The translations under genes and the position numbers were made by a program. The notes beneath the pieces were generated by a model. It made no database searches and had not been told where the DNA came from. It worked only from the letters and a program-made list of their open reading frames with translations. From a bacterium (GTDB taxonomy: Bacteria > Hinthialibacterota > Hinthialibacteria > Hinthialibacterales > Hinthialibacteraceae), in contig JBHGBC010000093.1 of assembly GCA_041946805.1 (NCBI GenBank), forward strand, positions 1 through 23,320: 23,320 nucleotides of DNA, in the 5' to 3' direction. Below are positions 3,830 through 21,059 of the stretch, one piece after another. Numbering within the stretch: position 1 is the first letter of the stretch; each line of letters opens with the position of its first letter.

Positions 3830-3904
3830 TCGGAAAGAGCGTAAAGCAATAATTCCCTCTCCCTCTGGCAGAGGGCCAGGGTGAGGGAAAGCCCTGAAAG
3901 AGCG
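3830..3904 (-). repeat. CCCTCACCC-type REP with flanks related to the 12174/14511 elements
   Basis: The minus strand reads cgctctttcagggctttCCCTCACCCTGGCCCTCTgccAGAGGGAGAGGGaattattgcttt...tctttcc. It lies in tandem with the REP in 3793-3825. Confidence 0.8.
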
Positions 3905-3963
3905 AAAAAACGGCTCTCCGCGCAATCGGTTCCATCTTGGTATTTTTACTCAATAGAACCTCG

Positions 3964-4298: not shown

Positions 4299-6071
4299 TT
4301 ATGGACTCGCTTCTTGCGTGGCGGGGACCGGCGCCATGCCGATCGGTTCCGCTCCGGCCGGAGTCAATTGAGCGGCCAGGCTGGAGATTTCCTTCTGGAT
4401 GGCCTCCACCTGGTCTTGGGTGGCTTGAATGGATTTGGCCATATCATCCAGGATGGTTTGAAACGCCGCGCGCGCCTCTTCCGATTCGGGATTTTCCATC
4501 CACGCCGCGGCTTGGCTCCGGGCCGCCTCGATTCCGGTTTTCAGGGCGCCATGCAGGGTTTGGATCTCCCCGCTCAGCGTTTGCAGGCCTTTGATCGTGT
4601 TACTGTATTCCTCCCGTTCCGTTCCCTCCGTCACGGATTGCGCGGCCAGGGTTTCCTGCACCGTGTTCAATTGTTTCGCGAGATCTCCATGGATCCCCTC
4701 CACCCGTTGCCCCAAGTCTCCGAGCTGATTCCGGGCGCTCTCCATGGCCAGCCGCGTCTGGGTCTGAATTTCCAAGGCGGCGGCGAAGTCCTGATCCCGC
4801 CGGGATTCGGTGCTGATCCATTGTTGAATCATTTCCCGGGACGAAGCGGCCAGGGACCGCGTGTCGGCTACGGCGTCCGCCAAGCCGGCGAGTGACTGGC
4901 TCAGGGATTCCATCCCCGCGGCCAGGGTTTCCCGGTTGGGCTCCGCCGGTTGCGCCGGGATTTGTTTCAGGGCGGCCAATTCGAGCCACAGATCTTCCGT
5001 ACGTCCGCTAAGCGCATACTCCATTTCCCGGATATCGTTCCGGAGGATTTCCACGGACTCCTTCCCGCCCGCGAAACCGAACTGAGTATCATCCGCCAAC
5101 GCTTGGATCTGCCCGTCGATCCGCGTTTGCCAATCAGTCAGGAATGTCTTTTGATCCATCTGGCCGGCGTGCAAGGTATCCATCAACGCGTCCACCTGGT
5201 TGCCCAACGCGGTTTCCACGCCTTGGGTATCGATCCGCTGGCTTTCCGCGTATCCGTCCAGAATTCCCGTGATCTGCGCCAGACCCTCGTGGGCGAGCGT
5301 TTCCAACATCGTCCGGCCGCTTTGCGTATCCGTGGAGATTCCCGCCAGCTGGGTCTCGATATTGTCGAGGCTGCGCCGCGAATCTTCCCGCAAGGCGGTC
5401 AGTTGCGTGTTCAGGGTTTTCGCCTGTTCGTCCAGACGGCTGCTGAGGGCCAGGTTCGCCTGCTGGCTCCACTCGCTCATCGAGGTGAGGCCCGCCATGA
5501 AATCCTGGCTGAGCTGCTGCACGCCGGCCCGCAGGTCCTGGCCGTTTTGTTCCACCCGCCGGGCCAGCGCCGCCAGCTGTTGGTCCACCGCCTGGACCTG
5601 GTCCTTGGCCTGCACAGCGGCCTCGCGGGTCGCCGCGGTGTCCTGCGCCAGGGTGGCGGCCAGCGTCTGGAGGGCGTCCTTCTGATTTTGGTCCTGCGCT
5701 TCGATCGCCTGAGTCAGTTCGGAGGTTTGCCGGGTGAACGCCTGGACGGATTGGGTCACCAGGGCCGACATATCCGTCAGGGTGGTGGAGAATTTCTGGG
5801 CGAACTCGGCGCTTTCCGCCCGGTTGCCCAAAATATCCTTGCGCGCGTTTTGAATGGCTTGCAGCGTGTTTTCGGTTTGCTTGGATACATCACCGGTCTG
5901 GGACAACACCCGGCTTTCCAGCGAGGTCAACCGCGCGTCGATGTAATACGCGACGCCGCCAAATCCGATCAGCATCACCCAGAGGATCCCCCAGCCGGTT
6001 CCACGGGAGGAACCCTTGTTGCGGATATCCTCCCCGGGATTTTCTTGCAGGTTGGTGTTCGACTCATCCAT
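4299..6071 (-). CDS. Single-pass membrane-anchored long coiled-coil (apolipoprotein-like) hypothetical protein (590 aa)
   Basis: AAGGAGAG precedes ATG 6071 (MDESN...). One TM segment (WGILWVMLIGFGGVAYYI) is followed by about 500 aa of A/Q/E/L-rich heptads, and a terminator lies downstream. Confidence 0.8.
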   Translation of the reverse strand: MDESNTNLQENPGEDIRNKGSSRGTGWGILWVMLIGFGGVAYYIDARLTSLESRVLSQTGDVSKQTENTLQAIQNARKDILGNRAESAEFAQKFSTTLTDMSALVTQSVQAFTRQTSELTQAIEAQDQNQKDALQTLAATLAQDTAATREAAVQAKDQVQAVDQQLAALARRVEQNGQDLRAGVQQLSQDFMAGLTSMSEWSQQANLALSSRLDEQAKTLNTQLTALREDSRRSLDNIETQLAGISTDTQSGRTMLETLAHEGLAQITGILDGYAESQRIDTQGVETALGNQVDALMDTLHAGQMDQKTFLTDWQTRIDGQIQALADDTQFGFAGGKESVEILRNDIREMEYALSGRTEDLWLELAALKQIPAQPAEPNRETLAAGMESLSQSLAGLADAVADTRSLAASSREMIQQWISTESRRDQDFAAALEIQTQTRLAMESARNQLGDLGQRVEGIHGDLAKQLNTVQETLAAQSVTEGTEREEYSNTIKGLQTLSGEIQTLHGALKTGIEAARSQAAAWMENPESEEARAAFQTILDDMAKSIQATQDQVEAIQKEISSLAAQLTPAGAEPIGMAPVPATQEASP

Positions 6072-6699
6072 CGTTCCACTCTCCTTGCCTTCGTTTGGAA
6101 TGGATCCACCCGCCGGTCCTTGGCCAGGCAAAATGGAGGACAAGGACCGGCGGCTCGATGAACCGATGGAAATCCGAGGTCAACCAGACAAAAATCCCTT
6201 CACACAAACCATCCAATCGGTTCGGCTTCGGTACGGACGCGGTCCGCCGGGGTTCATGCTGGATGGCCAGGAATGCGGCGCCCCGCCGGAATCCGTCCGC
6301 CCGCTTGAAAATCGCGGGATTTCATACCATTGGATGACATGTTGGGGATGAGGGAAGTGAAAACACAGAAACGCAGGAAAATTCAGGGTTTTGTCCACCC
6401 GGACCCGCCATCGCGGCATTCCCACGCTTCGCGGACGGTTCCGTCAAGTCCAAGATCCCTCAACCAACTGCATTTGTATATGGCTATATTGCACTGAATC
6501 TAACTTTTTGTCAATCCATTTTTTGGGATTTTTAGGAAAAGGGGCTTGGTTCCATATAGGGAATGAAATGGGGTTCATCCGGGAAGTGCGTACATCATGA
6601 AGTAAAATCGATCCACTTCACTCCGGGATGATGGCATGGAAGGGACACCTTTTCCCCAGTTCGGTACACACTCCCCGGTTAATCCAAATTTTTTATATG

Positions 6700-6823: not shown

Positions 6824-8044
6824 ATGAAACGCCAACGAATCCACGGAGAACCACTTCGGCTCGTGGGAACCAGCCGCGCGATGGTGGATGTCCGTGACCG
6901 AATCAATCAAATTTCCCAACTGGCCGAGAGTCACCTCACGGTTCTGGTCACGGGAGAGACAGGCACCGGCAAGGACCTGGTGGCGCGGCTCATCCACCAA
7001 ACATCCGTGGGGGCGGAAGGCGGGGCGTTTGTTCTGGTCAATTGCTCCGCCGTGGCGCGAGGATTGGTGGAGAGGGAACTGTTTGGTCATATCCAAGGCG
7101 CCTTCACGGGAGCGGAAAAATCCCGCAAAGGCTTCTTTCACCAAGCCCGCCGGGGGACGCTGTTTTTGAATGAAATCGGGCATACGTCTAAAGCCTTCCA
7201 GGCGAAATTGCTTTCCGTGTTGGAGGAAAACATGTTTTACCGGGTAGGTTCACCGCATGCGGAAGCAACCGACATCAAGCGCTTTGTGTTCGCCACCAAC
7301 CAGAACCTGGAACGGCTGGCCGCGGAAGGCCGCTTCCGCGAGGATTTGTACTACCGTATCGCTCAACACGAAATCCACCTTCCTCCCCTCCGCGAACGGG
7401 TTGAGGATATCCCCGTGCTGATTGATTATTTTACCGATTCTTCATCTCGTGGATCCAGTTTGAAATTCACCAGGGAAGCCCTGCGAGTGTTGTGTGAATA
7501 TCCCTGGCCGGGAAACGTGCGCGAACTGAAAACCGTCGTGAACCGATGTTTTATGCAAGATTTTTCTGGAGAAATCGATGCTGGAGATTTGATTCGTGTC
7601 TACTCCCGGTTCTCATTTGCTTCGGTTAAACCCGGTTGCCGAACGCGAGGGGAGGAAGACCCCCCCGTTCCCTGCTGGCAGCCGCTTGAAACACTCCCCG
7701 CGCCGGATTTTGTCGAAAAGATCAAGAATTGTTGGTCATGTGACCGGTTCCAGTTCCAACGGCAACGACTGTTGAAGGAAGCGGCGGGTGACAACATCGC
7801 ATCCTTTGTGCTGCGCAACATGCCGAAATTGCTGGAACAGCATCCCGGGGTTATCGAGTTGAAAAGCGTGAATCCCGGGCAAATCACATTGGAAGAAATC
7901 AAGGAAAAAGCGGAGAAACAGTATTTGCAATGGCTGCTACGAAAACCTGGCATGGACCGGGGAAAGTTGGCAACAGAACTCCGGTGCACGCGGCGTCACG
8001 TCAACCGGTTGCTCAAAAAACATGGCTTGATGGAAACCGATTGA
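6824..8044 (+). CDS. Sigma54-dependent enhancer-binding protein (AAA+ plus Fis-like HTH) with no N-terminal sensor domain
   Basis: Walker A GETGTGKD, ELFGH..GAFTGA, variant Walker B TLFLNEI, GRFREDLYYRI, WPGNVREL and C-terminal HTH RGKLATELRCTRRHVNRLLKKHGL. Confidence 0.93.
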   Translation: MKRQRIHGEPLRLVGTSRAMVDVRDRINQISQLAESHLTVLVTGETGTGKDLVARLIHQTSVGAEGGAFVLVNCSAVARGLVERELFGHIQGAFTGAEKSRKGFFHQARRGTLFLNEIGHTSKAFQAKLLSVLEENMFYRVGSPHAEATDIKRFVFATNQNLERLAAEGRFREDLYYRIAQHEIHLPPLRERVEDIPVLIDYFTDSSSRGSSLKFTREALRVLCEYPWPGNVRELKTVVNRCFMQDFSGEIDAGDLIRVYSRFSFASVKPGCRTRGEEDPPVPCWQPLETLPAPDFVEKIKNCWSCDRFQFQRQRLLKEAAGDNIASFVLRNMPKLLEQHPGVIELKSVNPGQITLEEIKEKAEKQYLQWLLRKPGMDRGKLATELRCTRRHVNRLLKKHGLMETD

Positions 8045-8310: not shown

Positions 8311-9879
8311 ATGTATAACAAAAAGTTTTTATTATTACTAGCAGTCCTTTGTTACCACACAACTGTCCAAGCAAGCGAAAATCAACAACAAGTCAACAAA
8401 TTATCCGCAGAGGACCGCTTTGAGCGGAATCGATTGAAGCTTCAACAAGAAAGTGATCCCGAAGTCCTCGTTAAGGCCGCGCAAGACCTTGTCAATTTTG
8501 TCCATCTGAGCCCCACACCGGAAGAACTCATAAACAGCCTTGACCAACAAATCTCCAACCTGATAGGGAAGAATATGAAAATTTACCAAGATCTGGCCCT
8601 GGTCAAGGCAAACATCTTGGCACGGATTGGCCGTTGGAATGAAGCCAAAACTCTCTTTGAAACTGCGATCCAGGAAAAATGGCCCCAATCGCTACAATCC
8701 TACCTGGATTGCATGACCGCCACCGGACGAAACCGGGAAAGAGCCATTGAAGAGTTCAACCGGTGTGTGGATACGCCTTCCTACCTGGATTATCGGGGAC
8801 GACGGGAAGATCTGAGCGTATTCATGACGATACTACTTTTCGCCCGGAAGGACGATCCTGATTTTCGAGCTGTACAAGATGTGTTTCCCAACCTGATCTT
8901 CAATGACAAAAATCCGTATTTATTAGAATTGTCACACGCAATCTGTTTGATTACAGATGATAATTATGAGGAAGGCATTGCCCGTTTCCAATCGATTGAA
9001 TCCGCCTTGCGGGAAGCCAACACTGGTGATCCAGTATATAAGGATATCCCTCTTTTCATTGCTTGGGCTTTATTTAATGAAGGCAAGAATTACGATCAAG
9101 CCCGGGAATGGCTACGCATCTTTCAAGAACGTAATCAAGAAGACTTAGGACACGTCCTCGGCCGTATTCTACGCATTGCATACTATTTCGAACGGTACGC
9201 GGATTTGCGTTACAAGATCGTAGAGGTCACCGCATTTCTTCTCGATAACCTTATGTTCACCAATCCAGAAATCCGGTCTAAGTTGAATGCGGAAGTCCAA
9301 AGCAATACGAAAATGAAGGCCAAAATGCCCTCCGACCTGTATGCCCATGTTCTTGAACTGCATGCGCATAGTCTCTCGTGGAAATTCGATTGGCCGAACG
9401 CGGTAAAAATCTGGGATGAGATCATCGAGGATTATTACCCGCATACGATCACTGGAGCCAGCGCCATGATGAGCAAAATCGTGTACCTGGCTTCTTCCAA
9501 CAATGTAGAGGGTGGAGATATCGGAAGTGCTTTGGCGTTGTTGGATCATCTTTTAGAGAATGCACCCTATGACGAAATCATTTTTCATGCCCTCCGCCTA
9601 AAAGCGAAATACAAAGGGATGTCAGGTGAATATAATGAATCCTTGTCCATTCTTCAACAGCTATATGATTGGATACCACCCAATCCGACGCCTGAACAAA
9701 AAGAGTGTCTTGAAAAAGCAAAACGGATGGAGGAAAATATCTACAAATCCATGGAGTATCAACGCATGGCCGATGAAAATAGGATGCGGCGGGAACGTTT
9801 TCGGAATATGACCCAAGAAGAAAGAATGAAAGAAGCCCTGGAAGCCGCGCGGAAACGAAAGAGTGGGGGATCCCAGTGA
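8311..9879 (+). CDS. Exported TPR-like alpha-solenoid protein
   Basis: Signal peptide MYNKKFLLLLAVLCYHTTVQA, TPR-like helices (KANILARIGRWNEAKTLFETAI; KAKYKGMSGEYNESLSILQQL) and a charged C-terminal helix. Confidence 0.8.
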   Translation: MYNKKFLLLLAVLCYHTTVQASENQQQVNKLSAEDRFERNRLKLQQESDPEVLVKAAQDLVNFVHLSPTPEELINSLDQQISNLIGKNMKIYQDLALVKANILARIGRWNEAKTLFETAIQEKWPQSLQSYLDCMTATGRNRERAIEEFNRCVDTPSYLDYRGRREDLSVFMTILLFARKDDPDFRAVQDVFPNLIFNDKNPYLLELSHAICLITDDNYEEGIARFQSIESALREANTGDPVYKDIPLFIAWALFNEGKNYDQAREWLRIFQERNQEDLGHVLGRILRIAYYFERYADLRYKIVEVTAFLLDNLMFTNPEIRSKLNAEVQSNTKMKAKMPSDLYAHVLELHAHSLSWKFDWPNAVKIWDEIIEDYYPHTITGASAMMSKIVYLASSNNVEGGDIGSALALLDHLLENAPYDEIIFHALRLKAKYKGMSGEYNESLSILQQLYDWIPPNPTPEQKECLEKAKRMEENIYKSMEYQRMADENRMRRERFRNMTQEERMKEALEAARKRKSGGSQ

Positions 9880-11210
9880 AAAGGGGGTGTGTAATCATGC
9901 AAAACGCAATATCGAAGTCAAAATTTAGAATCACCATACGGTTTGTATCGATTCCAGGATGCCTGATCCTCCTCTCACTCTCCATTATGTCTGGTCAATC
10001 TTGTCCTCCGCCTCCGGAATGCGAGACTCCTGGACGATATGTTTTATGGGCGAAACGTAATTCGGCTGTCATCGCGCAAACCGAATTGGGACAAAGCGTT
10101 TATCTGGACTCTTACTCATCACAATCTGACCGGGTGATTAAGTATGAATTGGTCTCACAAGTTTATAAGGATGGGCAATGGCAAATATGGTATTATGACC
10201 TGGCGGATTGTGGCACCTGCAATGTAAAACCTTGCACTTTCTCACGAAGTGGAGGATCAATCACTTCGTCTGGAAATAATTATATCATGGTGAGTTACGA
10301 TTCCTCTCCGCTAGCAGGATACGTGCGGGGAACACACAATGGCTGGGAATGCTACAAAACGCAGTATGGCGGTTATATCATCCCCGGCGGTTCGCAGATC
10401 AACATGAATGTCTACGTAGTTAAGGTAACAATTCTAGGCGCGGATATTCCCGATGATCTCATTTCGGTACAGTTACAACCTTCCGGATTAACCGGTTTCA
10501 TGGAACTCGCCCTGGATGGGGATACCTGGCATTTGATCCGGCAAGTGTCCCGTTCATCGGGAATCCATTCGGAATCCTTCGACATCCCCAACCTTCCGGA
10601 AGGAGAATTTGATTTTGTCTATGCCTCTTGGTGTCTGGAGGGAGAATATTTGTTTGATGACTTGTTAGATTATCACATTCGCGTTTTAGGGACTTATAAC
10701 AATACTCGCTATAACATACCTTATGAATCAGACTGTACAGGTTCTATTTTGTCTTTTTATTTTACAAGTGGCAATTGTTCTCCTACGCCACCCTGCAATT
10801 GGAACTCAGGTCCAGGTAGAAGTGGATGGTTGGAAGAAACAAAAGAAAATGGCAGTGGGAAAGGTGCTTCCGGAAATTATTATGCTCTTGAATGGGATTG
10901 CGACCGTGGTTTAACTTATGAATTTAGAAAAATTCCAACTGAAGGTTGTCCATCTTGTGTTGGCGAAGCTTTAATTAAAGATAAGACGGTTGCACGTTAT
11001 AAATATCATACTAATTTGCAATGTGGCGATTATGTTTTTGTGCATACGGTTGGAGTCCGGAAAGTAACGGATCAGGGATCTGGCTCATCAGGCTGGTCAG
11101 AATACGAGAAACAACATTGGTTGGATCATTATGATGGTTGCAGTGGATGCAACAAACCAATAAGTATTGGTAATAAAAAAGTTATTCTTCTGTATGGTTA
11201 TTCAGAATAG
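9876..11210 (+). CDS. Cys-rich exported protein with a C-terminal 3D/MltA-like domain (putative peptidoglycan-lytic effector)
   Basis: GTGA overlap with the upstream stop (alternative start ATG 9897) and a hydrophobic signal region. The C-terminus has TRYNIPYESD...ENGSG...TVA...GDYVFVHTVGVRKVTDQGSG...WLDHYDG, matching the 3D-domain pattern. Confidence 0.7.
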   Translation: MKRGCVIMQNAISKSKFRITIRFVSIPGCLILLSLSIMSGQSCPPPPECETPGRYVLWAKRNSAVIAQTELGQSVYLDSYSSQSDRVIKYELVSQVYKDGQWQIWYYDLADCGTCNVKPCTFSRSGGSITSSGNNYIMVSYDSSPLAGYVRGTHNGWECYKTQYGGYIIPGGSQINMNVYVVKVTILGADIPDDLISVQLQPSGLTGFMELALDGDTWHLIRQVSRSSGIHSESFDIPNLPEGEFDFVYASWCLEGEYLFDDLLDYHIRVLGTYNNTRYNIPYESDCTGSILSFYFTSGNCSPTPPCNWNSGPGRSGWLEETKENGSGKGASGNYYALEWDCDRGLTYEFRKIPTEGCPSCVGEALIKDKTVARYKYHTNLQCGDYVFVHTVGVRKVTDQGSGSSGWSEYEKQHWLDHYDGCSGCNKPISIGNKKVILLYGYSE

Positions 11211-11225
11211 ATAAGGAGAGTTATA

Positions 11226-12173
11226 ATGCTAAATCTTAGCATGTCTTTTATTCAAATTGCTATTATTATTTTCAACCCCATGGCCATTACCATGGAGGAA
11301 TCTTCTTCCTACGTCAGCCCCAATTTCAAACTCGAGAACGATCAATTTGAAATCATTTCGATACAAGTAACCCCCTTGGAAGATTTAGGAAAATATGTGA
11401 AAGATGTCAAAATTGAGGTTCAAAACAAAATTGATCAAAAAATATTTCAAATCAAGTATCAGAACGCATTTCAAGATCTATATCGGGCCGAAATGGTTGA
11501 TCAAAACCTGTTGCTGGTGTTCGCCAATCTTCCCCGGGACGGCGGGTGTATAACGATATGCGATATCCAGAAAGAAAAATGGATTGAAACGCTCCGTTGC
11601 CATAAATATGATTTCTCTCCTTCCCGGAACTATTTGATCTATGAGACCTGGTACCCCCGGCTTGCTCCTCCCGATGCCCGCAAATCGATTCTCATGCTCT
11701 ACGATTTCAGCCGCAGTGAAGAAAACAAGCCGATAATGAATTCATTATCCGATTATCCACCGATGGCTGCCGGCTGGCCTCTATTTCCCGAAGAATCCGC
11801 TGCCTTGCAATCCTCCGATATTTCATTGCTCTCGGATTATTCAATTCTCTCTCCTTTTTTATGGTCATCTGGGGAAAAGGAATTCATTTTTTTTACTTAT
11901 GATGAATCGATCCGTGAAAATTTCATTGTCCGGATTGATTTGAACGATGGAATCGATCATCCCCGGATTAAAAGAAAGCCGATTGACGTTGATTCACTGA
12001 TTCACTGGGACCGAATGAGAGATAGCACCCGAAATGAATTTATGAAAAGACCATTCCGGTTTTTTGTGCGGGAAATGAAATGGATCGATTCAGATCATAT
12101 TGAAGCAATCCCTGTAGTCGAAGAGGATTGGTTAAAGGAGAAATATGAATTCGAGGTGCCAAGAATTGAATAA
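11226..12173 (+). CDS. Exported hypothetical protein, putative immunity/inhibitor (paralogue 1)
   Basis: AAGGAGAG RBS, starts 15 bp after the effector stop, hydrophobic N-terminus, clear paralogue of 12386-13336. The function is inferred from context. Confidence 0.75.
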   Translation: MLNLSMSFIQIAIIIFNPMAITMEESSSYVSPNFKLENDQFEIISIQVTPLEDLGKYVKDVKIEVQNKIDQKIFQIKYQNAFQDLYRAEMVDQNLLLVFANLPRDGGCITICDIQKEKWIETLRCHKYDFSPSRNYLIYETWYPRLAPPDARKSILMLYDFSRSEENKPIMNSLSDYPPMAAGWPLFPEESAALQSSDISLLSDYSILSPFLWSSGEKEFIFFTYDESIRENFIVRIDLNDGIDHPRIKRKPIDVDSLIHWDRMRDSTRNEFMKRPFRFFVREMKWIDSDHIEAIPVVEEDWLKEKYEFEVPRIE

Positions 12174-12367
12174 ATGCAACTATCTAATCGATCGCTGATA
12201 AAGGATGCCTTTTGCCCTTCCACGGCTTCCCTCACCCCGGCCCTCGCCCAGAGGGGAAGGGGAGTAATTACTATTGTTTTATCTTTCCCAAAGCTTACGC
12301 CCTGGGCTGCATTCTTGGCGCGCCGTTGGCGCTCAAAAGCAGCACTGCAAACCGGTAAGTAGTTACA
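12174..12367 (+). repeat. Composite MITE/attC-like element, long subtype (copy A)
   Basis: Imperfect inverted ends tgcaactatcta...taagtagttaca, an internal CCCTCACCC REP and a CCCA..GCT.ACGCCCTGGG hairpin. Collinear with 14511-14697. Confidence 0.8.
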
Positions 12368-12385
12368 AAAAAGAGGTGTTGTGCC

Positions 12386-13336
12386 ATGAAACAAACTACA
12401 TATAGAAAGCTAATTACCACTTTAATGATCTGCTTTTTCGAGTTTAATGGTTCAGCGCAGCCAGATAAAAAATTACATATTGATATGCAATTTAATAATT
12501 ATCGGATCTCAGGATTATTGGAGCAAAAAGAAAAGAAAGGTTCCGATATAATTCAATTGAAGGCATTGCAAGTATATAATGCGATCCAGGATGCCACAAA
12601 AACGGTTCAATTGCCTTATTCTTTAATACAAATATATCAACAATTCGTAACATATAACGATTTGTTTTTTCTTCAAGGCGAAATCGCACCCCTTATTGAG
12701 ATCAATTATATTATATCCCTTGAAAAGGGGTGTATAGGAGATTTTTTTGTGTCAAATTATGTTATTCCTTCACCCTTTCATAATTATATTGTTTATCAAA
12801 CATCTTTCCCTCGAATGGCTCCTCCTGAATTCAAGTGTTCTTATCTCATGATTTATGACTTCAAAAAACTTGATGACCCGAAACCGATTCATACAACGAA
12901 TCGAGAATTTCCCCCTACGACCGTGGGCTGGCCTCTTTATCCCCCTGAATATGTGATTGCTCAGGAACATTCAGCCCAAATACAGGATGTCCATATCAAT
13001 CCCCTTATCTGGGCTCCTGACGAAAAGGGGATTATTTTTATCAGTTGGACCGATGATCCATGTGAATATTTTTTGGTTTCGATTGATATTTCTCAGGGTG
13101 TCGAAAGGTTATTGATCCGGCAAAAGAAAATTGATGTACTCGGTTTAAGCAAATGGGGCAAAATGCATGAACGGACCAAGCAGTCCTATGACAAAAATTG
13201 CTTGCCTTTTTCGGTTAGAAAACTGGAATGGGTGGATGAAAAAACAATATGTTTGCACATGGATCCTTCTCGTTCGTTATTATTTGATAAAACTATTATA
13301 CTATCCTTGGAGGATATGGAAACTGTCTTGGAATAA
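12386..13336 (+). CDS. Exported hypothetical protein, putative immunity/inhibitor (paralogue 2)
   Basis: GAGG RBS and signal peptide. Shares SP..NY..Y.T..PR.APP....S.LM.YDF, PP...GWPL.P.E, P..W...EK..IF, ID...G, IDV..L..W..M and F.VR...W.D with paralogue 1. Confidence 0.75.
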   Translation: MKQTTYRKLITTLMICFFEFNGSAQPDKKLHIDMQFNNYRISGLLEQKEKKGSDIIQLKALQVYNAIQDATKTVQLPYSLIQIYQQFVTYNDLFFLQGEIAPLIEINYIISLEKGCIGDFFVSNYVIPSPFHNYIVYQTSFPRMAPPEFKCSYLMIYDFKKLDDPKPIHTTNREFPPTTVGWPLYPPEYVIAQEHSAQIQDVHINPLIWAPDEKGIIFISWTDDPCEYFLVSIDISQGVERLLIRQKKIDVLGLSKWGKMHERTKQSYDKNCLPFSVRKLEWVDEKTICLHMDPSRSLLFDKTIILSLEDMETVLE

Positions 13337-13376
13337 TTGGTTGCAAGATTTCACACGATTCCAGGAGAGAAATATG

Positions 13377-13488
13377 TTTCGCACTTCCACGGCTTCCCTC
13401 ACCTTAACCCTCTTCCAAAGGGAGAGGGAATGGTTTAGCGCTCCCATTTAAGAATTGAGAAAGTTCTGCATTCGGGTAAATAGTTACA
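13377..13488 (+). repeat. Composite MITE/attC-like element, short subtype (copy B)
   Basis: ttccacggcttccctcacc...gggagaggg...gagaaagttctgcattcgggtaaatagttaca. The 3' 32 bp differ at one position from copy D. The left end is unclear. Confidence 0.75.
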
Positions 13489-13524
13489 AGACATTTCAAC
13501 AGTCCGCATAGCGAGGTTCTTCCA

Positions 13525-14469
13525 ATGAGCAAAATATTCATCCCTATTCTATTTGGCCTTCTACTAGCCTACCCCTTCCCTTCTCGCGCGGATTCGGAAT
13601 TCATCCAAGTCTTAACGTACTCCTTGCCCGATGAACCGAATCCGGCGACCGTGGACTACAGCCGTCAGGCTTTCTTTTTGGAATTCGTGAATCCTCAAAT
13701 CCTCTCCGTCTATCTCCCCTTTTATTATGAAGAAATGGCCTATGCCGCCGTGGATCATGTTTTTCAGGTGGATTGGAACCTGACAGATCATTCCTACAAA
13801 TTGTTGAAACCGGACACTTTGCCCGTCGGGGATCATCCATTGGAAATCAATCGCGAATCGAATTCCATCCGCTTGAATGAACATGAATTGTCTCTTGAGA
13901 TCAATCCCGGCGCTTATCCCATCCTCGCGATTCTATCCCCCGATAAAACCTGTATCGGCGGAGTACTAAAGCAAGATGGGGATTTTTTCACCTATGCGGA
14001 CATCCCGGTCCTTTGGAGCGCGTCAACCGGACGATTCATCCACAACTCCACCCAAAGTTACAGTTACGGCCATGCATCAGAAAATCAATTCTCCAGGGAT
14101 GGACGCTATTTTTATTCCCGTGGAAACCGGAACCACTCCTTCGGCAAACCCCTCTCTTCCCATGAATACCGTATGATTCTCGATGTCTGGATGATTGATA
14201 CCCAAACCAGGGAACCCATTGACGCCTCGGCGGATGTCGCCTTCACATCGGACCTCCGCTATTTCCTCACAGAAAGAGGTAAAGTCCCCACCTTAGTTGA
14301 TGCGGAAACTCATCAATCCATTCAGCGCTATGATTTGGGTGGATTGCGAATGACCGCGGCAGTTTTCTCGGACGACAACCAATACCTCTACATCGCCGGG
14401 GAGGACAATAACATCTACGTCTTCCCCAGCCAACTCCCATCCGCGGTGAGTGATTGGGAAAACAATTGA
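13525..14469 (+). CDS. Exported WD40/beta-propeller-like protein with C-terminal SAVSDWENN tail
   Basis: Signal peptide ending ...PSRA, and blade motifs LSPDKTCI, FSRDGRYF, FTSDLRYF, FSDDNQYLYIAGEDNNIYVF. Confidence 0.8.
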   Translation: MSKIFIPILFGLLLAYPFPSRADSEFIQVLTYSLPDEPNPATVDYSRQAFFLEFVNPQILSVYLPFYYEEMAYAAVDHVFQVDWNLTDHSYKLLKPDTLPVGDHPLEINRESNSIRLNEHELSLEINPGAYPILAILSPDKTCIGGVLKQDGDFFTYADIPVLWSASTGRFIHNSTQSYSYGHASENQFSRDGRYFYSRGNRNHSFGKPLSSHEYRMILDVWMIDTQTREPIDASADVAFTSDLRYFLTERGKVPTLVDAETHQSIQRYDLGGLRMTAAVFSDDNQYLYIAGEDNNIYVFPSQLPSAVSDWENN

Positions 14470-14510: not shown

Positions 14511-14697
14511 ATGTAACCGATTGCACTGTTATAGAGGATGAATTGCACCCTTTCACGGCTTCCCTCACCCTGGCCCTCTACCAAAGGGAGAGGGGATTAA
14601 TTACTTTTGTTTTATCTTTCCCAGGGCTGACGCCCTGGGCTAGGCTCATGCCGCGCCGTTGGCGCTCGAAAAATTTTCTGCAACCCGGTAAATAATA
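14511..14697 (+). repeat. Composite MITE/attC-like element, long subtype (copy C)
   Basis: Begins atgtaacc and is collinear with copy A for about 160 bp. The right end is degenerate (ccggtaaataata). Confidence 0.8.
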
Positions 14698-14850
14698 AAG
14701 ATAAACAGAGTCCGATCATTCAGCGCGTATCGCGTCAGCTATTTTGCGCTGATTTTTCCTCCTCTCCCCGATTACCCCCTCATTTCCGCGGCTTCTTCCC
14801 CATATAGAGAAGGAATTTTTGCATCCCCTGATTTCCCGCAGGAGGAAACC

Positions 14851-16158
14851 ATGTGGCCCCGAATCCGCAACTGGTTCGCCAAGCCGTCATCCCCTGAAGG
14901 TCCCGCCCGCGCGCGCAAAGTGGCCTGGGCCACTCCATCCACACTGCCCGCCTCGCCCCGTTCGCGCCCTCTGTACGAAGGCTCCCTCTCCCTCTTCGGC
15001 CCGGACGGCGGTTATTGGCCGCCCCAGGGACTCGACCCGCGCATCCTGTTCCCGTTTCTCCGGCGGCTGCGCGATTACATCCCCGACGTCTCGGCCGGCG
15101 TGTGGGCGTGGGTGCGGCTGTGCTCGACGCCCCAATCCTGCTCGCTCTCCGAAGGCTCCGAGGCCGAGCAGGCGCGCGCCCGCGCGGTCCTGGACGCCCT
15201 GGACCGCCGCCTCGTGGATCTCCCCACCGGGCAGGACCACGGCGTGGAAGCCCTGGTGCAATGCTTCTTCCTCTCGGTGTTCACCTACGGCGCGTTTTGC
15301 GGCGAGGTGGTGCTGGAGGATTCCCGCCGGCAAATCGACCGCTTCCTGATCATCGATCCCGCGACCATCCGCTTCCGCCCGGATGTCCAGACCCGCCGGT
15401 TTCTCCCTTTCCAGATCCAGGACGACGGGACCCTGACGCCCCTGCATCCCGCCTCGTTCTTTTATTTCGGCCTGGACACGGACGGTCTTTCCCCCTACGG
15501 CCGCTCGCCGCTCCTGGCCTTGCCCCTGGTGGTGAAACTGCAACAGCAGATGCTGCGCGACATGGCCCGCGCCCAACACAACGCCGGCTACCCGATGGTT
15601 CATTTCCAGATGGAAAAACCCGCGCCCGGCATCCGTGAACAACCGGGAAACTACAACGCCCGCCTGCAGGAAGAACTGGAAGCCCTGCGCGCCGAAGTGC
15701 GCGGCCGCGAGGCCGACAGCAACTTGGTCACCTACGACAACGTGCGCGTGAGCTACATCGGGCCGGATGGGTACTCGCATCAGTGGCAAGAGAGTCTGCA
15801 GGCGATCGGAGAGCAAGTGATCTCCGCCCTGCACCTCGCGCCCTTCATGATCGGCCGCAACTGGGGAACCACGGAATCGTGGGGCACGGCGCAATACCAA
15901 CTGCTCACCAACAACGCCCGCACGGTGCAAGAAGGAGCCAAGCGGCTGGCCGAATGGCTCCGCAACCTGGAACTGACGCTGCAAGGCTCGCCGCTGAGCG
16001 TCCGGCATCACTTCGCGCCGCATCACCACCTCGACGCGGACGGCCGCGCGCGGGCGCTGCAAACCATGGCCAACACCCTGGTGACGCTGACGGAGAAAGG
16101 ACTGCTCGATCCCGCCGCCGCCCGCCAGCGCATCGAAACGCTGTTAAGGTTTTATTGA
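14851..16158 (+). CDS. Phage portal-like protein (orphan)
   Basis: AGGAGG RBS, 435 aa. Portal-type motif order: LRDYIPDVSAGVWAWVRL, FTYGAFCGEVV, IIDPATIRF, SPYGRSPLLAL, NAGYP, EQVISALHLAPFMIG..WGTTES. Confidence 0.75.
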   Translation: MWPRIRNWFAKPSSPEGPARARKVAWATPSTLPASPRSRPLYEGSLSLFGPDGGYWPPQGLDPRILFPFLRRLRDYIPDVSAGVWAWVRLCSTPQSCSLSEGSEAEQARARAVLDALDRRLVDLPTGQDHGVEALVQCFFLSVFTYGAFCGEVVLEDSRRQIDRFLIIDPATIRFRPDVQTRRFLPFQIQDDGTLTPLHPASFFYFGLDTDGLSPYGRSPLLALPLVVKLQQQMLRDMARAQHNAGYPMVHFQMEKPAPGIREQPGNYNARLQEELEALRAEVRGREADSNLVTYDNVRVSYIGPDGYSHQWQESLQAIGEQVISALHLAPFMIGRNWGTTESWGTAQYQLLTNNARTVQEGAKRLAEWLRNLELTLQGSPLSVRHHFAPHHHLDADGRARALQTMANTLVTLTEKGLLDPAAARQRIETLLRFY

Positions 16159-20895: not shown

Positions 20896-21059
20896 GTAAC
20901 TGTTTCCACCTTTGCAGAGAAAGGATGAATTCCGCCCTTTCCGGGCTTCCCTCACCCTGGCCCTCTCCCCGAGGGAGAGGGTATCAGTTCGCGTTCCCAT
21001 CGAAACACTAATCATGAATAACGCACTGAGAAAGTTCTGCATTCAGGTAAATAGTTACA
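20896..21059 (+). repeat. Composite MITE/attC-like element, short subtype (copy D)
   Basis: Inverted ends GTAACTgTTT...AAAtAGTTAC, internal CCCTCACCCTGGCCCTCTCCC.gaGGGAGAGGG. Shares its left part with copy C and its right part with copy B. Confidence 0.8.

Follow-up and report, generated by a model that had tools for sequence, protein, structure and literature searches.

A lone portal gene in Hinthialibacterota as a probable part of a dispersed, phage-derived particle system that is a candidate gene transfer agent

The 23,320-base stretch of DNA analysed here (the window), which is the entire contig C309 of a Hinthialibacterota (OLB16) genome, carries a gene for a phage-type portal protein (14851-16158, forward strand) that stands alone among genes without phage affiliation. 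We consider it probable that this portal is part of a domesticated, co-regulated head-tail particle system of phage origin, dispersed over the genome, kept by the host lineage and resembling a gene transfer agent (GTA). A first-pass annotation of the sequence had read the gene as a domesticated portal, belonging either to a GTA-like system split across loci or to a repurposed ring channel, rather than to a decaying prophage. The split GTA-like system is supported by what follows and the ring channel is not favoured, while intact frames, a low dN/dS, a tree that follows taxonomy and the wide distribution in the phylum speak against a decaying prophage. The comparisons use 61 genomes, namely the own genome (G000), 34 relatives from the phylum and 26 genomes of other phyla. 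Within the phylum, f1 is the own family (19 relatives besides G000, including the congener G001), f2 belongs to the same order and f5 is the sister family.

The portal gene and its isolated position

The portal frame begins with ATG, encodes 435 residues with 0 internal stops and is preceded by an AGGAGG ribosome-binding site (14840-14845, +) with a 5-nt gap to the start codon, which bears out the earlier description of an intact, full-length gene with a strong ribosome-binding site. The stretch containing this site, AGGAGGAAACCATG, is identical upstream of the portal gene of the congener. In the PHROG search, phrog_3753 ('portal protein') matched residues 67-426 (15049-16128, +) on profile positions 58-417 of 503 with E 1e-37; two other portal PHROGs matched as well (1.7e-16 and 4e-6), and an NCBIfam search gave no match. 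The near-invariant columns among 39 portal homologues are concentrated in this core, and residues ~1-60, rich in Pro, Arg and Ser, form a low-confidence part of the AlphaFold model, which was made with the 39 homologues as input (predicted local distance difference test score, pLDDT, 76.6; predicted template modelling score, pTM, 0.67). Foldseek comparison of the model with the PDB returned 138 matches at E <= 0.001, the best being 8qem_R (E 3e-13, template modelling (TM) score 0.43). Since the listed matches, which include those of phage 812, G20c, T4, HK97, lambda and the particle of the Rhodobacter capsulatus GTA (RcGTA), are all portal, neck or connector proteins, the portal fold is confirmed.

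The GC content of the gene is 0.663, and 0.826 at third codon positions (GC3), against a genome GC of 0.584, which places it at the 99th percentile of the 1.3-kb windows of the genome. Its composition resembles that of the GC-rich host genes of the window, as had been claimed for its codon usage (GC/GC3 of 0.636/0.791 for an aminotransferase, 0.644/0.757 for GH129 and 0.614/0.830 for an aldo-keto reductase), though it is GC-richer than the genome average.

Phage structural, packaging or integration families were searched for with Pfam and/or PHROGs among the 31 open reading frames (ORFs) of the window, and none was found but the portal. The lack of phage neighbours noted by the first-pass annotation therefore stands and, the window being one complete contig of the bin G000 (6.7 Mb, 315 contigs, 96.8% complete), is valid for contig C309 only. 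The contiguous integrase, replication, lysis and packaging modules of an intact prophage are not present at the portal locus. Comparison of the window with the corresponding locus of G001 (L013) by blastn gave a single alignment, 14766-16158 at 88.6% identity, with unrelated flanks. The homology of the two species thus begins with a conserved upstream block (14766-14850, +) and ends at the portal stop codon. Contigs of another metagenome (X3) likewise lose homology to the window exactly at 16158/16159.

Partner loci and their shared promoter-like element

The proteins of a contiguous portal cluster of the sister family, used as tblastn queries against G000, were mostly found on contigs other than C309. 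The isolated terminase and capsid genes that the first-pass annotation had proposed to look for elsewhere in the genome do exist: a large terminase (TerL) gene lies on C34, a capsid module on C282 and a hub-like gene on C279. As is characteristic of GTAs, the host genome contains phage-derived genes for a capsid, a portal, a large terminase and tail components (C309, C282, C34 and C279). The partner loci on C282, C34 and C279 are flanked by genes such as those of TIM, AcrB, SAICAR synthase, VIT1, GT9 and GntR.

The module on C282 lies between TIM/TetR/HlyD/AcrB and SAICAR synthase and has the order u2, head protein, capsid protein, f18, Dit, phrog_16951 protein, f21, d1, d2. The u2 product is a 158-residue coiled-coil, scaffold-like protein; its comparison with the product of the gene directly behind the portal in the sister-family cluster gave an hhalign probability of 2.7% (E 0.017, 54 C-terminal columns). 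The head protein belongs to phrog_4588, the major capsid protein matches phrog_3922 (E 5e-77) and Pfam Phage_capsid_4, and Dit is recognised by a profile match to SPP1 gp19.1 (2x8k, E 2.7e-7) and by PF22768 (2.1e-9) and phrog_33 (7e-12). The d1 protein carries an N-terminal motif that we take to be that of tail fibres. Profile searches against PDB sequences with the protease-like protein (A3), f21 (A4), the fibre-like d1 (A5) and f18 (A6) found no credible match. The phrog_16951 protein has an invariant His and Ser plus a Cys cluster, and the best match of its modelled N-terminal domain is the T4 gp21 prohead protease (Z 7.9, 131 residues), followed by the proteases of varicella-zoster virus (6.0) and human cytomegalovirus (5.3), the next, unrelated row being at Z 4.5. 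Atlas gave weak leads from this protein to S77, S78 and S80 proteases. Foldseek found nothing for the model at E <= 0.001, so that the prohead-protease fold comes, with a middling Z, from the Foldseek-independent search only; the assignment as a prohead protease has moderate support.

The lone TerL gene on C34 encodes 525 residues that match Terminase_6N (48.6 bits, over the cut-off) and phrog_2 (8.7e-29); Terminase_6C was not found in G000. Its Walker A, Walker B/Glu and nuclease Asp motifs, presumably equivalent to those of the T4-type terminases from which we took the assignment, are invariant in 15/15 orthologues. The locus has no conserved neighbour gene. C279 carries, likewise alone, a gene of a 366-residue family that Atlas relates at 0.97-0.98 to viral clusters, including baseplate hubs of the Mu gp44/GpP type, and which we call hub-like.

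The families f5 and f6 have a contiguous cluster of ~11 kb that opens with the portal, which is followed by a gene without known family, the phrog_4588 head protein, the capsid protein (phrog_3922, E 6e-83), a small protein, Dit and the phrog_16951 protein, and then by several tail-like genes without known family, an M15 peptidase, the 366-residue hub-like protein and TerL (phrog_38, E 7e-72). The flanks of these clusters are host genes (LptE, sugar nucleotidyltransferase, fucosidase, amidohydrolase, a TPR-repeat protein and a response regulator), and no integrase or replication gene was found within ~9 kb upstream and ~8 kb downstream. We infer that one ~11-kb cluster, still present in the sister family, was the ancestral state. 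In the own family and order the kit is spread over at least four unlinked loci among housekeeping genes, i.e. the portal, the nine-gene module, TerL and the hub. In G010 the portal (C2:104,538), the hub (C2:80,804) and the capsid gene (C2:603,208) lie far apart on one 1.85-Mb contig, with TerL on a 1.64-Mb contig, so the dispersal is real and not an artefact of binning. Unlinked loci, a portal and a capsid gene up to ~500 kb apart in that genome, and contiguous clusters whose flanks lack integrase and replication genes are what is expected of a GTA, an agent that cannot propagate itself.

The order u2-head-capsid-f18-Dit-protease-like-f21-d1 (then d2) is kept in 18/18 fetched f1 and f2 loci, with SAICAR synthase near the module in G000 and in 5/18 of them. 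The portal adjoins RsfS in four fetched loci and the same NHL/PMT_2 gene in six, one of which is from f2; the split is therefore older than the divergence of f1 and f2.

A block of ~40 nt recurs in G000 in front of four genes, those of portal, TerL, u2 and hub, and an alignment of 29 sites gives for it the consensus AATnCCnnnTTTnTGCGGCnnTTTCTCTATnnGTAGAG. The portal copy of this promoter-like element, common to the terminase and head-module loci, is at 14774-14813 (+). Orthologous upstream regions in other genera hold the same element, and a related pattern stands upstream of the hub-like gene. The exact string ATTAATC-N18-TTCTC has three matches in the G000 genome, those upstream of TerL, u2 (the module) and the hub, and the portal site deviates from it by one. 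As a marker of the element, the short core ATTAATC[CT]CC was rejected, because it mostly finds an unrelated palindromic repeat. In our reading the spacing of the two best-conserved blocks would not fit a sigma-70 promoter, and a putative dedicated sigma factor or activator is suggested as the reader of the element.

The specificity of the element was examined with hidden Markov models (HMMs) built with sites of the searched genomes left out. With 29 training sites from other genomes, none of them from G000 or G001, and both strands of G000 scanned (13.4 Mb), the sites of TerL (E 0.003), portal and module took ranks 2, 4 and 8, respectively. A second model (R1), from which the G010 and G007 sites were left out, was run over those two whole genomes. 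In G010 the portal, module and TerL sites took ranks 1-3 (E 3.6e-4, 0.008 and 0.025); in G007 the portal ranked 1, TerL 3 and the module 4, and a second TerL copy was also among the matches. In the window, R1 has the portal site, a member of its training set, as the only strong match (19.8 bits). Judged by its occurrence along the genome, the element upstream of portal, TerL and head module is specific, and it may serve a co-regulation of these loci by the host.

The other top matches of the element in G000, on C292, C3 and C119 and, lower, on C245, each lie ~85 nt upstream of one of four paralogous ORFs of 145-154 residues (L100:2242-2697 -, L101:2356-2793 -, L102:2244-2693 + and L103:2281-2745 +, respectively). 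Over a helical N-terminal part of ~60 residues these proteins are similar to the beginning of TerL (blastp E 2e-5 and 0.005); the remainder is Pro-rich and has a conserved APGLL motif at the end, and PHROGs gave no match. The family is multi-copy and fast-evolving, one short query having found four copies in G000, four in G001, seven in G007, two in G015 and one each in G009 and G010. An adaptor, a small-terminase substitute, cargo and a regulator are candidate functions. As a tentative extension, which we put forward as a possibility rather than as the expected outcome, the phylum may have its own, independently domesticated GTA, with genes scattered down to single-gene loci and joined only by a promoter code, in which the ~150-residue paralogues would be exchangeable adaptors that choose the load of the terminase.

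Conservation in the phylum and surroundings of the gene

The portal gene is single-copy in G000 and is present in 31/35 species genomes of the phylum (E <= 1e-20), in agreement with the single-copy conservation that the first-pass annotation had made a test of domestication. Matches were obtained in 33/61 genomes: besides G000, in 18/19 of f1, 4/4 of f2, 7/7 of f5 and 1/1 of f6, in none of f3 (0/2) and f4 (0/1), and in 2/26 genomes of other phyla, where the homologues (34% and 29% identity) are located in phage-like clusters. Identity to the window portal falls with taxonomic rank, from 91% within the genus to 57-66% in the family, 53-54% in the order and 43-46% in the sister family f5. A two-motif scan that covered 185,579 species, each represented by a single genome, found 26 loci; of the records that name a taxon (n=12), 11 read 'Candidatus Omnitrophota' and one 'Candidatus Hinthialibacteria bacterium OLB16'. 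The closest portals of viruses are distant: 6/50,697 records of cultured phages match with identities <= 27.7%, and four loci on IMG/VR viral contigs, in phage-like clusters, match with identities <= 38%. Among sequencing runs, only the probable source run contains the whole window; small shares of it occur in 21 further entries, and the three of these that were compared showed relatives at 90-99% identity, too little to name a habitat.

The capsid protein is found in G000, 17/19 of f1, 4/4 of f2, 6/7 of f5 and 1/1 of f6, and the hub-like gene, in 30/35 genomes of the phylum, has the same family pattern as portal and capsid. All three are absent together from f3 (0/2 for the capsid) and f4 (0/1), one of the f3 genomes being 95% complete in 9 contigs. 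The f5-type TerL is present in 7/7 of f5 and has weak matches only in f1 and f2, which probably are other elements. The TerL frames of f2 are longer (up to ~700 residues), with an additional N-terminal part.

For the trees of portal, capsid and TerL, taxonomy labels served as a stand-in for the species tree. The maximum-likelihood tree of 27 portals recovers f1 (support 100/100), f2 (100/99) and f5 (95/98), joins f1+f2+f6 (96/96) and needs four label changes, the minimum possible; vertical phylogeny had been the second of the proposed tests. Despite the lack of linkage, the capsid and TerL trees agree with the portal tree in the families, and the three trees have in common the sub-clades G000+G001, G009+G012, G003+G019 and G020 with G022+G024; in the capsid tree, moreover, G013 joins G003+G019, and G014, G015 and G005 fall together.

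Selection, the third of these tests, was estimated between G000 and G001 with the NG86 method. The dN/dS of the portal is 0.11 (dS 0.38), that of the capsid gene 0.07, that of TerL 0.21 and those of the other module genes 0.18-0.30, including 0.198 for f20 (frame L031:10779-11456); two host genes have values of 0.09 and 0.17. Distribution, tree and dN/dS point to long-term vertical inheritance of the portal under purifying selection. The dS values of the system genes (0.23-0.55) are below those of the two host genes (0.85 and 0.90), for which codon bias or exchange between relatives is a possible cause.

Directly upstream of the portal lies a low-GC stretch (8311-14469), whose genes have a GC of 0.36-0.49 (genome 0.58). 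It contains five same-strand ORFs, a TPR protein followed by proteins of 444, 315, 316 and 314 residues; except for the TPR repeats and one weak, sub-threshold Pfam match on the last ORF, they have no Pfam, PHROG or NCBIfam match. The stretch has the look of foreign DNA that was inserted recently. Upstream of it, a gene at 6824-8044 (+) encodes a sigma-54 activator with an AAA+ domain from residue 23 and without an N-terminal sensor or receiver domain, and a gene at 4299-6143 (-) encodes a 614-residue coiled-coil protein. A homologue of the latter (L015:638-2098) is found in G010 about 7.5-9 kb from the portal, and the gene may be a leftover of an older portal neighbourhood. A palindromic repeat of ~70 nt, similar to repetitive extragenic palindromic (REP) sequences and with the core ...AATTAATCCCCTCTCCCTCTGGGAGAGGG...GGGTGAGGG, occurs in the window at 3856-3907, 13377-13449, 14537-14601 and 20912-20980; it is also intergenic on many other contigs of G000 and is present upstream of the G001 portal. 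This REP-like repeat is unrelated to the promoter-like element despite the common ATTAATC core.

Interpretation and relation to known systems

On the basis of the roles known for these families in tailed phages and GTAs, we propose the following working of the system. The pieces would be kept in step by the common ~40-nt element, for which a single dedicated sigma factor or activator is the presumed reader. After induction, the portal, the ring at the vertex where DNA enters, would nucleate a procapsid together with scaffold-like u2 and the HK97-type capsid protein, the prohead-protease-like protein would mature the shell, TerL would dock on the portal and pump DNA in, and a short tail with Dit, hub and fibres would then be attached. 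Since the genes are scattered and replication and integration genes are absent, the particle could not carry its own genome; the packaged DNA, if any, would therefore be host DNA, as in a GTA.

A number of observations weigh against a GTA-like particle system. The Pfam matches of the window portal, though genuine, are below the curated cut-offs, with 27.8 bits versus 39.1 for Phage_portal (PF04860) and 23.7 versus 23.9 for Portal_Mu (PF06074); many of its homologues have precomputed matches to one or the other. The portal flanks differ between both species of the genus, and those of the contiguous clusters vary among genomes of one genus, so these loci move, though the trees show no transfer between families. 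TerL is retained less regularly than portal and capsid: the f1 type is found in 13/19 of f1 (4/4 of f2), one of these 13 (G006) has short fragments only, and with the queries used it is absent from G013 (95% complete) and G015 (99% complete). A phrog_2 search for other terminases found none in G013 and, in G015, G006, G018 and G028, weak matches in the P-loop/Walker-A region only, without the promoter element. TerL also differs between families, in that the proteins of f5 (L033:964-2385, G031) and f1 (L036:1159-2736, G000) do not find each other at E <= 1e-3, through either replacement or very fast divergence. G017 (82% complete) has an intact portal, a hub gene with four stop codons and no detected capsid or TerL, and in G008 (86% complete) the portal was the sole part found; the system may therefore be disappearing from some lineages, or the portal may be useful by itself. 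As to the promoter-like element, the hub site ranks 11 in G010 with model R1 (E 1.3) and is missed in G000 at E <= 5. No tail tube, tape measure, small terminase, holin or, in the own family, endolysin was recognised. The sole hint of expression, and a weak one, is a 251-nt contig, 93% identical to the portal, that was found in the RNA library of a different sample; it belongs to a relative and may stem from carried-over DNA. Particles and DNA transfer are predictions from the genes of the system.

Several of these points would be accommodated if the domesticated particle were something other than a DNA-transfer agent, such as a killing or adhesion particle, a container for protein or nucleic acid, a means of decoying or warding off related phages, or a set of helper genes for a satellite. 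The irregular retention of TerL, its different types in different families, and the unrecognised small terminase and lysis genes of the own family fit such a particle, for which the four (G000) to seven (G007) small paralogues, with the element and a TerL-like N-domain, might be cargo or adaptors. However, TerL is under purifying selection where present, its ATPase and nuclease motifs are invariant, and it has the same promoter element as the portal and the head module. Moreover, we know of no role of portal and terminase in tailed phages except moving DNA into a capsid. We therefore regard a non-transfer particle as unlikely, though it deserves more weight than the two explanations that remain. 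One of them is that the portal alone is kept as a ring or channel and is tied to the other phage-like genes by nothing but a common history. The portal is indeed a single-gene unit, the homology with the congener being limited to the gene and 85 nt upstream, and in G017 and G008 it is intact while capsid and TerL were not found, the hub gene being broken in G017; those genomes are, however, incomplete, and elsewhere the portal co-occurs with capsid and hub, all of which are gone together in f3 and f4. The portal, capsid and TerL trees agree, and the promoter element is common to portal, TerL and head module in the three genomes tested genome-wide. Because capsid, protease, terminase and tail genes co-occur with the portal and have its element, we think a lone channel very improbable.

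Hardly any more room is left, and if anything slightly less, for scattered remnants of old prophages that have not yet decayed, or for an active phage. Every part is of phage origin, and the distant relatives in two other phyla and on viral contigs stand in phage-like clusters. Against this, almost every genome of four families has undisrupted frames, dN/dS is 0.07-0.30 and dS is not saturated, the trees follow taxonomy, the loci have kept their gene order and housekeeping neighbours, integrase and replication genes do not accompany them, and a common promoter element is conserved; an active phage is contradicted by scattered genes, which could not be packaged as one genome. A domesticated GTA-like system, dispersed and co-regulated, thus remains the reading that we prefer.

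Among the known systems the closest analogy is with GTAs of the RcGTA type (R. capsulatus, Caulobacter, Dinoroseobacter), in which a phage-derived capsid, portal, TerL, protease, Dit, hub and fibres are likewise host-encoded, inheritance is mostly vertical over long times, replication and integration genes are absent and genes are spread over several loci. The terminase and portal genes of RcGTA stand inside its 17-gene cluster, and its control is by CtrA/GafA. The Hinthialibacterota system differs in belonging to another phylum, in the splitting of its core packaging and head genes, with portal, TerL and hub each as single-gene loci, and in its own ~40-nt motif as putative control element. 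RcGTA is reported to have at least 24 genes over five loci, 17 of them in one head-tail cluster (PMC10883770). Specific homology to that cluster and its order is not seen, as the cluster of the sister family runs from the portal to TerL and the RcGTA portal is one among many fold matches of equal distance: the RcGTA portal structure 6toa_A is among the fold matches of the window portal (E 1.6e-9), but RcGTA portal chains rank below several phage portals, all with a TM of about 0.4, so that there is no specific kinship.

Other GTAs have evolved independently, namely BaGTA of Bartonella, VSH-1 of Brachyspira, Dd1 of Desulfovibrio and VTA of Methanococcus. The present system would be similar to them in that a host lineage has, on its own account, domesticated a tailed phage; for these agents DNA transfer was shown experimentally, whereas the system of Hinthialibacterota has been traced through its genes. 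The portal shares its sequence profile and fold with tailed-phage portals (PF04860, PF06074, PHROG 3753), unlike which it is not beside terminase or head genes, is fixed in a host lineage and stays below the Pfam cut-offs. Defective prophages and tailocins (PBSX-type) are also phage structural genes kept by a host without a phage life cycle; they are contiguous and usually of strain or species level, and tailocins are without capsid, portal and terminase. In contrast, the Hinthialibacterota system is phylum-wide and scattered.

No description of a particle system of Hinthialibacterota was found in the searched literature, which covers full texts without subscription journals and supplements. 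In the main description of 'Hinthialibacter' (PMC9324843) phage, capsid, prophage, virus and gene transfer agent are never mentioned, 'gene transfer agent' and 'OLB16' have no combined mention in the full-text literature so delimited, and in one of the papers that pair 'gene transfer agent' with 'Omnitrophota' GTAs are raised only as a general possibility.

The portal system of Hinthialibacterota is, as far as sequence can indicate, a candidate new GTA in an uncultured phylum. For annotation, the lesson is that a lone 'phage portal' need not indicate a prophage. The promoter-like element predicts a regulon that includes new small proteins, and provides a handle for finding the regulator and for following expression in metatranscriptomes of the sludge and sediment communities to which these bacteria belong. 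To our knowledge few GTAs are known, and nearly all work rests on the alphaproteobacterial one. If the proposal is true, this would be a second system with signs of long-term host ownership, being near-universal in its phylum, with taxonomy-following trees, a promoter of its own and purifying selection. It would make visible to what extent a machine of viral origin can be dismantled in a genome and yet run as a unit, and would offer an independent case for asking why bacteria retain such particles.

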